The notes under the pieces: generated by a model
Seen by the model: the letters and a program-made list of their open reading frames with translations, nothing else
The model's database searches: none
Told to the model about the DNA's origin: nothing
Shown: in pieces, positions 644 through 991 of the stretch
How the letters are laid out: each line of letters opens with the position of its first letter
Position numbering within the stretch: position 1 is the stretch's first letter
IMG/VR virus record: IMGVR_UViG_2706794689_000007
DNA length: 4,518 nucleotides
Strand: one strand, 5' to 3'
From: a virus
Taxonomy: Duplodnaviria > Heunggongvirae > Uroviricota > Caudoviricetes
Made by a program: the position numbers and the translations under genes

Positions 644-841
644 ATGCTAAAACAGCAGGATATGACAGAAACCGCCAGAGTGGTGTTTAATGAATTAAGC
701 GTTACCGAACCGGCGACAGTCGGGGAGATAGCGCAGAATACTTACCTTTCACGCGAACGCTGCCAGTTAATACTGACCCAGCTGGTTATGGCGGGTCTGG
801 CAGACTATCAGTTCGGTTGTTACAGACGCCTTCCGCAGTGA
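644..841 (+). CDS. Small hypothetical protein (65 aa) with possible helix-turn-helix (TVGEIAQNTYLSRERCQLIL)
   Basis: ATG 644 preceded by AAGGAAAA (about 6-nt spacing). Stop TGA 839-841 lies inside a terminator hairpin. No recognisable homolog recalled. Confidence 0.4.
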   Translation: MLKQQDMTETARVVFNELSVTEPATVGEIAQNTYLSRERCQLILTQLVMAGLADYQFGCYRRLPQ

Positions 842-851
842 AGGCTTTTTT
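828..851 (+). terminator. Rho-independent terminator
   Basis: Stem GCCTTC (828-833), loop CGCAGT, stem GAAGGC (840-845), followed by TTTTTT (846-851). Confidence 0.55.
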
Positions 852-870
852 ATTTGTGGTAAATGGGCGG

Positions 871-897
871 CTGGTGGGTGTTAGGGGCACCCACCAG
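871..897 (+). repeat. Perfect 10-bp inverted repeat (CTGGTGGGTG / CACCCACCAG) with 7-nt loop
   Basis: Direct reading; GC-rich hairpin not followed by a T-run, so not a classic terminator. Possible RNA structure or protein-binding site upstream of the methyltransferase gene. Confidence 0.7.
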
Positions 898-940
898 CCA
901 TCTGCTCATGCGTTGGGTTCACAAGCAAACCTCAGGCCCA

Positions 941-959
941 CTGCTTTGCGCAAAAGCAG
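941..959 (+). repeat. Near-palindrome CTGCTTT-GCGC-AAAAGCAG
   Basis: 7-bp arms around a GCGC core with one extra A; 33 bp upstream of the methyltransferase ATG. Candidate operator-like site. Confidence 0.5.
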
Positions 960-991
960 AATGAGCCTATCAGAGACAGGCTTAATGATCC

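Follow-up and report, generated by a model that had tools for sequence, protein, structure and literature searches.

The DNA considered here is a stretch of 4,518 nucleotides (nt) from IMG/VR virus record IMGVR_UViG_2706794689_000007 (Caudoviricetes), referred to in its whole length as the window. It represents the late-regulatory region of a lambdoid (Stx-type) prophage, and its nearest phage records are Stx2-converting phages, phage 1720a-02 and phiP27. Three elements follow one another on the plus strand: an open reading frame (ORF) for a protein of 65 amino acids (aa), a structured leader of about 130 nt and, directly behind it, the gene of an adenine methyltransferase (MTase) that sits in the Q-dependent late operon (Table 1). 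The spacer between the ORF and the MTase is 150 nt long, and tRNA genes lie 3' of the MTase. An earlier note on this DNA had compared the small ORF and two palindromes behind it to a controller protein with its operators, with RNA structure in the late leader as a fallback. The observation is confirmed and the interpretation is partly supported: both palindromes are covarying helices of the leader (P2 and P4), as the fallback had it. The leader and the small gene appear to form a module that controls the MTase, somewhat more probably at translation than otherwise.

Table 1. Features of the late-regulatory region, in window coordinates.
Feature	Position	Strand	Basis or remark
Q antiterminator gene, 3' part	51-419		PF03589
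tR'-type intrinsic terminator of the Q-dependent late promoter region	500-526	+	stem 500-519 and T-run; terminator scan
Promoter-like motif	584-620	+	upstream alignment of relatives
65-aa winged-helix ORF, phrog_331	644-841	+	
Terminator-like hairpin overlapping the ORF stop codon, then T-run	828-851	+	terminator scan
Structured leader of the MTase mRNA	863-991	+	covariance model match 851-997
Segment a, AUGGGC	863-868	+	pairs with b (904-909) or d (936-940)
Helix P2 (first palindrome of the earlier note)	869-899	+	12-bp stem, 7-nt loop
Segments b, GCUCAUG, and c, GUUCACAAGC	904-910 and 917-926	+	b:c is P3; otherwise c pairs with f
Segment d/d', AGGCCCA	934-940	+	GCCCA with a (P1), or AGGC with e (965-968)
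Helix P4 (second palindrome of the earlier note)	941-959	+	arms CTGCTTT/AAAGCAG, centre GCGCA
Segments e, GCCU (965-968), g, AGGC (978-981), and f, CUU..UGAUC (981-990)	965-991	+	MTase translation initiation region
M.EcoGII-family beta-class N6-adenine MTase gene (assigned by likeness)	992-2009	+	PF01555; Ns mask 1274-1489

The 65-aa ORF, credited in the earlier note with a helix-turn-helix (HTH)-like segment, is a real gene. It starts with an ATG behind an AAGGA Shine-Dalgarno (SD) sequence at 633-637. It is under purifying selection, with a ratio of nonsynonymous to synonymous substitution rates (dN/dS) of 0.04-0.3 and saturated synonymous sites. Its product was modelled by AlphaFold2 as a complete winged helix (H1-b-H2-H3-wing; pLDDT 89.5). 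Three helices followed by a beta-hairpin wing place it in the winged-helix (MarR/TrmB/IclR-type) superfamily. The Foldseek neighbours of the model are generic winged helices (IclR, MarR/OhrR and O-methyltransferase dimerisation domains), with TM-scores of at most 0.82, to IclR/OhrR N-terminal domains. Pfam returned weak winged-helix families alone, all below threshold (TrmB, MarR_2, HTH_24). The TrmB label was rejected, as PF01978 reached 18 bits and its gathering cutoff is 25.6. In PHROGs the protein belongs to phrog_331 (E = 1e-37), which is listed as "function unknown", and records annotate the ORF as 'TrmB family transcriptional regulator' or 'hypothetical protein'. Searches of NCBIfam and PADLOC with the ORF gave no meaningful match.

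Homologues of the ORF number 334, of which the best 120 listed are 81-100% identical; remoter ones occur in Proteus, Providencia, Mangrovibacter, Mixta and Plesiomonas. The family is narrow, with 61 representatives after clustering at 50%. Among 5426 complete E. coli genomes, 2284 carry the ORF together with its spacer, and a single genome has up to 8 copies. The putative recognition helix H3, RCQLILTQL, is invariant as protein in nearly all aligned homologues, and its codons vary. The net charge of the protein is acidic to neutral (median -1, and -3 to -5 in Proteus/Providencia types). C40 and C59 are its only cysteines, the latter absent in Proteus/Providencia-type homologues. A Z-alpha reading of the winged helix had been prompted by weak Foldseek matches and by the alternating purine-pyrimidine centre of P4; it was rejected because the diagnostic Asn, Tyr and Trp (N173, Y177 and W195 of ADAR1) are missing, H3 having no Tyr and the wing no Trp. 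The ORF should not be annotated as a controller (C) protein of restriction-modification (R-M) systems or as a bona fide TrmB regulator.

The small gene is flanked by signals of its own. Some 25-60 nt upstream lies a promoter-like motif (CTTGCTG at 584-590, 17 nt, TATTGG at 608-613 and GTCA at 617-620) that is kept from E. coli to Proteus and Plesiomonas in the form CTTGCTG, 17 nt, TAYNTG, GTCA. Its -10-like hexamer ends in G where a T is usual, the promoter scan passed the motif over, and no consensus RNA structure was detected in the upstream alignment of this motif. Its geometry is promoter-like, and it may act as a promoter. At the other end, the terminator that had been assigned to the ORF was called by the terminator scan (stem 828-833/840-845, then T6AT3). 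The stem covaries in Enterobacteriaceae (GCCTTC/GAAGGC, GCCTCCC/GGGAGGC, GCTGCC/GGCAG); the Proteus/Providencia group has no such hairpin, and most relatives have an interrupted T-run. The equivalent spot in N15-like phages, directly before the leader, is taken by the late terminator tR'. Together with the motif before it and the hairpin behind it, the lambdoid ORF has the look of a self-contained cassette that was inserted between tR' and the leader.

The MTase begins where it had been placed, behind the palindromes, with an ATG at 992. Both unmasked parts of the gene match PF01555 (E = 5e-11 for the N-terminal part). The motif order is that of the beta class, DPPY before FxGxG, with VTDPPYF and DFFMGLGST visible in the translations. 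The window is 96% identical in nucleotides to phage 1720a-02 over 500-1270, and the MTase of that phage has been described as 'very similar' to M.EcoGII (Murray et al.; PMC5778455). Through this named likeness the window MTase is assigned, by sequence, to the M.EcoGII family. M.EcoGII is a non-specific adenine MTase that is silent in lysogens and deleterious if constitutively expressed (PMC5778455). Its homologues in Shiga toxin-producing E. coli are likewise inactive under laboratory growth (PMC6602927). The text of PMC5778455 characterises the enzyme, and the word 'upstream' is absent from it. The traits in common with M.EcoGII and M.EcoGI, both non-specific adenine MTases of E. coli prophages, are the beta class with DPPY then FxGxG, a lambdoid prophage as host and silence in lysogens. 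The MTase had been taken for an orphan, and this holds: no endonuclease gene was found in the window or in any relative inspected, where tRNA or lysis genes lie 3' of the MTase. The MTase has no SD sequence, its median duplex with the anti-SD being +0.5 kcal/mol vs -4.0 for the 65-aa ORF.

Two further observations concern this gene. In the window its N-terminal (992-1273) and C-terminal (1515-2009) parts lie in different frames across a mask of 216 Ns, and it spans 32 nt less than its counterpart in the closest genome (TOE17), an intact gene of 1050 nt that encodes 349 aa. Either the mask alters the length or the window copy of the MTase is disrupted. A GATC (Dam) site stands directly before the MTase ATG (986-990), inside segment f of the leader, and is kept in nearly all lambdoid-lineage members as CTGATC[T/C]ATG.

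The small gene, the leader and the MTase are linked. Among 34 species-level loci found via the ORF, 31 carry an intact ORF and the same MTase (59-95% identity), which starts 134-153 nt past the ORF stop. The other three comprise an MTase behind a prematurely truncated ORF (L039), a contig that ends before the MTase position and a decayed copy. The association extends to the telomere phages. N15 gp51 and PY54 ORF59 are distant homologues of the 65-aa protein (hhalign probability 70%, E = 4e-5), with which they share an N-terminal MTE(E/T)A motif and the helix-3 pattern. Both are 75-aa proteins encoded just before the late promoter (N15 gene 51 at 1006-1233 of L203, PY54 ORF59 at 992-1225 of L205). 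The order in N15-like phages is gp51-type gene, late promoter, tR', leader and MTase, with the late promoter and tR' abutting the leader. An association of the ORF with the leader-MTase unit in two gene arrangements argues for a functional tie. No homologue of the 65-aa protein was found upstream of the leader in VHML-type and Serratia OS31-type loci. With the distant homologues in N15 and PY54, the leader cannot be said to exist entirely without the ORF family. Decaying copies of the module also occur: one has a leader with point mutations and a deletion, the MTase being gone (L029 3166-3305), and another has an intact leader before an MTase reduced to its first 45 codons (L006 4344-4478).

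The leader itself is strongly conserved. Mean pairwise identity is 78% in the spacer vs 68% at codon positions 1 and 2 of the ORF and 44% at position 3. The RNA of 851-997 folds with -63.4 kcal/mol (z = -4.0 vs dinucleotide shuffles). A first set of sequences comprised 98 distinct spacer variants together with N15, phiKO2, PY54, VHML, Serratia OS31, Hafnia yong2 and SfV. A covariance model, R1, describes a three-way junction (P1 a:d, P2 and P3 b:c) followed by the hairpin P4. It matches the window with 122 bits (E = 2e-28) and gave 97 matches in 100 sources, one per MTase locus, each on the plus strand and ending at the MTase ATG. No match was obtained in ORF-only loci or in phiO18P, in which the MTase lies between lysis genes. 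A distant set of 152 MTase loci was fetched from IMG/VR and 100 of these were searched with the model; 71 of the 100 have the leader. Upstream of the MTase the leader thus recurs in Escherichia, Klebsiella, Salmonella, Proteus, Plesiomonas, N15-like and Vibrio phages, and often no close copy of the ORF accompanies it. The palindromes that had been noticed in the window recur upstream of homologous MTases, and in more than 100 distinct homologous sequences the leader elements are kept, with compensatory changes.

Rfam 15 (cmscan, whole window, E <= 1) has no plus-strand match in 851-997; its sole match there is a chance-level one to P26 on the minus strand (E = 0.067). In the literature no description was found of the leader, the 65-aa ORF or the control of N15 genes 51/52. 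The leader is apparently a previously undescribed structured RNA. Coding by ORFs inside it (863-964, 33 aa; 817-999, 60 aa) was rejected, as these have premature stops in relatives (for example in the Klebsiella type) and indels of 1-2 nt and compensatory base-pair changes also speak against it.

The helices of the leader are supported by covariation. The first palindrome, given earlier as an inverted repeat of 10 bp at 871-897, exists but is longer, with 12 perfect base pairs (bp) at 869-880/888-899 around a 7-nt loop (P2); by our own estimate about 0.002 such repeats are expected by chance in the region. P2 is 94.8% paired, with both-sided changes at 10 of its 12 pairs in the first set and at 11 of 12 in the independent distant set. 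One example is GGCTGGTGG/CCACCAGCC vs GACTGTAAA/TTTACAGTC. It has 49 G:U cells vs 23 A.C cells. The second, GCGC-centred near-palindrome was correctly described (P4) and holds a perfect 10-bp palindrome, TTTGCGCAAA, at 945-954. Between lineages its arms covary as GCTT/AAGC, GCTG/CAGC, GCGA/TCGC and CTCT/AGAG, and all 6 of its 6 pairs do so in the distant set. P3 (GCUCAUG with CACAAGC) is 71% paired and has 4-7 covarying pairs, and compensatory changes in a:d occur in L043, L279, N15 and VHML. For the junction fold as a whole, 85.9% of the cells are paired in the first set and 21 of 31 pairs are changed on both sides (slid controls 29-47%), and none of 500 shuffles matches the observed score. 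The distant set gave 86.6% and 26 of 31 pairs, with a covariation score of 0.383 vs 0.112; the slid controls span 26-47% over both sets.

Alternative pairings exist for the same segments. Their partners were proposed by RNAalifold and single-sequence folding and were counted on the model-based alignment. In the closed fold, a pairs with b, c with f, and d' (934-937) with e. In the open fold, a pairs with GCCCA (936-940) and b with c, so that the three-way junction P1-P2-P3 is followed by P4 and the initiation region is unpaired. The two folds are mutually exclusive, and their energies under constrained folding lie within 3-9 kcal/mol of each other. The closed-fold helices are 94.2% paired, against 22-45% in slid controls, and both members have changed in 9 of their 18 pairs. 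Individually, a:b is 97% paired with a compensatory A>G/U>C change in VHML, and c:f reaches 91% pairing, with both-sided changes at 6 of its 8 pairs. The pair 96:133, which involves segment d/d', changes from G:C to A:U in 19 sequences, including the independent case L022. The closed-fold helices hold 169 G:U cells vs 28 A.C cells, an excess that assigns them to the plus strand. In the minimum-energy fold of the window, f and the AUG are paired with 910-926, and f ends one base before the AUG. The closed fold is the predicted preference in E. coli and Klebsiella types, and the junction is preferred in Plesiomonas, yong2 and N15-like types. A comparison of cognate with non-cognate duplex energies came out about 0.5-1.8 kcal/mol in favour of each proposed helix and could not tell the two folds apart.

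How might a leader with two folds act on the gene behind it? The two folds, the lack of an SD sequence, the pairing of the AUG and the toxicity of the enzyme together point to a translational gate. The closed form would pair the 14 nt that precede the AUG, and the open three-way junction would free the initiation region. The toxic MTase would then be made only, or only briefly, in late lytic growth. The module would have a dedicated accessory factor in the winged-helix protein, which would act either in trans as a modulator of the switch or as a partner of the MTase. We infer that the alternative folds control translation and that the winged-helix protein has a role in the module. That the cassette and the leader gate translation of the MTase, with the protein as an accessory and not as a C protein on operators, has in our judgement a little better than an even chance of being correct.

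Several points weigh against this proposal. Its element of translational control is drawn from structure. The ensemble accessibility of the MTase initiation region is 0.38 vs 0.45 for the ORF, a slight difference, and thermodynamic accessibility was set aside as proof of sequestration because the difference is too small. N15-like phages show no evident c:f helix, nor does VHML, which has an ordinary SD sequence; the gate may therefore be lineage-specific, with the conserved core P1-P4 doing something else. An intact ORF is found without the MTase, another gene standing in its place, in phiSTEC1575-Stx2k and PhiR5_1. The acidic-to-neutral charge of the protein is unusual in nucleic-acid binders and argues against simple nucleic-acid binding. 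P1 and P3 hold 194 A.C mismatches vs 65 G:U pairs, and the former would be G:U on the opposite strand; we attribute this excess to the competing plus-strand helices. Finally, a simple hairpin does not account for the self-complementary apex of P4, which forms a perfect palindrome without a loop, 6 bp or longer, in 47 of the 57 distinct variants (16 of 73 in the comparison for P2). Its arms are GCTT/AAGC in all loci with a close ORF and differ elsewhere. P4 could have an operator-like role or one in loop-loop dimerisation, and because it is palindromic through its centre, a protein may bind there.

A different account of the two folds, which we hold to be possible but doubtful, is that the leader is an effector-responsive RNA switch. 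The junction would be a sensor bound by S-adenosylmethionine or S-adenosylhomocysteine (SAM/SAH), by the MTase itself in autoregulation, or by the winged-helix protein. If this is true, binding would flip the leader between closed and open and so set the dose and timing of a promiscuous MTase in temperate phages of Enterobacterales and Vibrionaceae.

The features of P4 are also an argument for a controller-like arrangement, in which a dimer of the winged-helix protein would bind P4 as double-stranded DNA, 42 bp upstream of the ATG, and block or modulate transcription of the MTase, RNA folding being secondary. The invariant arms wherever a close ORF is present and the symmetry through the centre, needless for an RNA hairpin, fit such a site. 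So do the winged-helix fold, the protein-level invariance of H3 above synonymous variation, the tight linkage of ORF and MTase, and a small gene with its own promoter-like motif and terminator-like hairpin. We nevertheless regard this arrangement as unlikely. The promoter scan of the spacer was negative, and on inspection the -10 position before the ATG is unlike a promoter; there is thus nothing obvious to repress or activate, and Q-modified polymerase reads through from upstream. From lineage to lineage the arms of P4 change together as base pairs, the protein carries an acidic to neutral charge, and in VHML-type and Serratia OS31-type phages, which have the leader including P4, the upstream DNA gave no homologue. 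As for the first palindrome, its sequence drifts and its complementarity is kept, G:U pairs included, while H3 is nearly invariant. An operator reading is weakened further by the distant set, as the leader is present in most of the loci searched and the ORF was recognisable in 9 of the 152 fetched. A variant in which a factor bound to P4, at -41.5, activates a promoter for a leaderless MTase mRNA was rejected, since there is no -10-like hexamer before the ATG and no promoter was called.

The comparison with the C proteins of R-M systems (C.PvuII, C.AhdI, C.Esp1396I) had its grounds. There too a small HTH-class gene lies upstream of a modification gene that is harmful if untimely, with palindromes near. 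The features that define C proteins are nonetheless missing here. C proteins are Xre-type HTH dimers (HTH_3 class), whereas the 65-aa protein is a winged helix for which Pfam gives no HTH_3. They bind sequence-conserved C-boxes upstream of their own gene, whereas the palindromes here are downstream of the ORF and P2 behaves as an RNA stem. They time endonuclease expression within a complete R-M system, in which their gene adjoins or overlaps that of the endonuclease, and here there is no endonuclease. The suggestion of a controller protein with its operators fails on these three counts: fold, endonuclease and position of the palindromes.

Less likely again is a role of the leader in processing or stability and not as a switch, for example as an RNase III site or a protective structure, with the ORF as an unrelated 'moron' that happens to accompany the MTase. 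The helix a:b together with P2 forms an interrupted duplex of 18 bp, about the size that RNase III recognises, and the lambda N leader is known to be processed by this enzyme. Some phages keep the ORF but lack the MTase, and its promoter-like and terminator-like flanks are typical of morons. Conserved single-stranded junctions and two sets of pairings exceed the needs of a cleavage site, however. The leader always ends at the AUG of the MTase, which lacks an SD sequence. An unrelated ORF is also hard to reconcile with its narrow spacing from the MTase across genera and with a distant homologue adjacent in N15-like phages.

We give very little credence to silencing of the MTase leader in lysogens by a minus-strand cis-antisense RNA in the manner of type I toxin-antitoxin systems. 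The gene product is toxic, and antisense control of this kind is common for toxic genes (hok/sok-type systems), the minus strand of the window folds equally well (-62.2 kcal/mol, z = -4.9), and the junction is about 92-93% paired on that strand vs 86-87% on the plus strand, because the mismatches of P1 and P3 are mostly A.C or C.A; yet no minus-strand promoter-like site was found in 400-1100 (scan) or in the first MTase codons (inspection), the would-be 3' U-tract is 2-5 nt and variable, and the covarying helices a:b, c:f and d:e are specific to the plus strand by their G:U excess.

The translational gate proposed here has its closest counterpart in working in com-mom of phage Mu. In both, a small gene (of about 60 aa in Mu) lies 5' of a toxic adenine-modifying enzyme on a phage late transcript, and both control regions contain GATC. 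The mom start lies inside an inhibitory RNA structure that needs opening, as would be the case with the closed leader. Com, however, is a four-Cys zinc-finger RNA-binding protein, whereas the 65-aa protein is a winged helix without conserved zinc ligands, and the mom stem is a single hairpin, whereas the leader is about 130 nt long with a three-way junction. The leader also resembles the bistable or metastable ones of the hok mRNA, lambda N (with RNase III) and translational riboswitches of the SMK-box type, in which exclusive alternative helices, one of them occluding the initiation region, stand before a gene that has to stay off; it differs in that no Rfam family matches it in sequence or structure. 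The module shares sequence or fold with none of the C-protein, com-mom and bistable-leader systems.

The module bears on how cells and phages silence, then deploy, a toxic sequence-independent MTase. M.EcoGII is a standard tool for chromatin footprinting and for labelling with N6-methyladenine (m6A), and its relatives are present in a large share of E. coli genomes. A covariation-supported leader with two folds and a small winged-helix partner make a concrete, testable control module, and the leader would add an RNA motif that is missing from current annotation and from Rfam.

The remaining observations concern the surroundings of the module. The terminator tR' (at about 500) is the left mosaic boundary of the conserved module, and most relatives are homologous from about 500 rightwards. 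At this joint the Q genes come from at least three unrelated Pfam families (PF03589, PF06323 and PF06530; loci L005, L010 and L001). The short transcript region between pR' and tR' (420-526) shows weak, sub-threshold Rfam similarities to the Trp leader and to isrK, and is the position at which Stx phages make the small RNA (sRNA) StxS. Further downstream, the Rfam sRNA family STnc100 was matched twice, at 2379-2568 (123.6 bits) and 3527-3711 (74.9 bits), as a direct repeat of about 145 nt whose copies bracket a 113-aa ORF (2949-3290) and two masked stretches. A DUF1737 ORF lies at 4316-4504 (E = 1.5e-15). In related prophages this region holds a sialate O-acetylesterase gene (nanS-p-like, SASA family), and the DUF1737 ORF is expected to precede such a gene in the window too.

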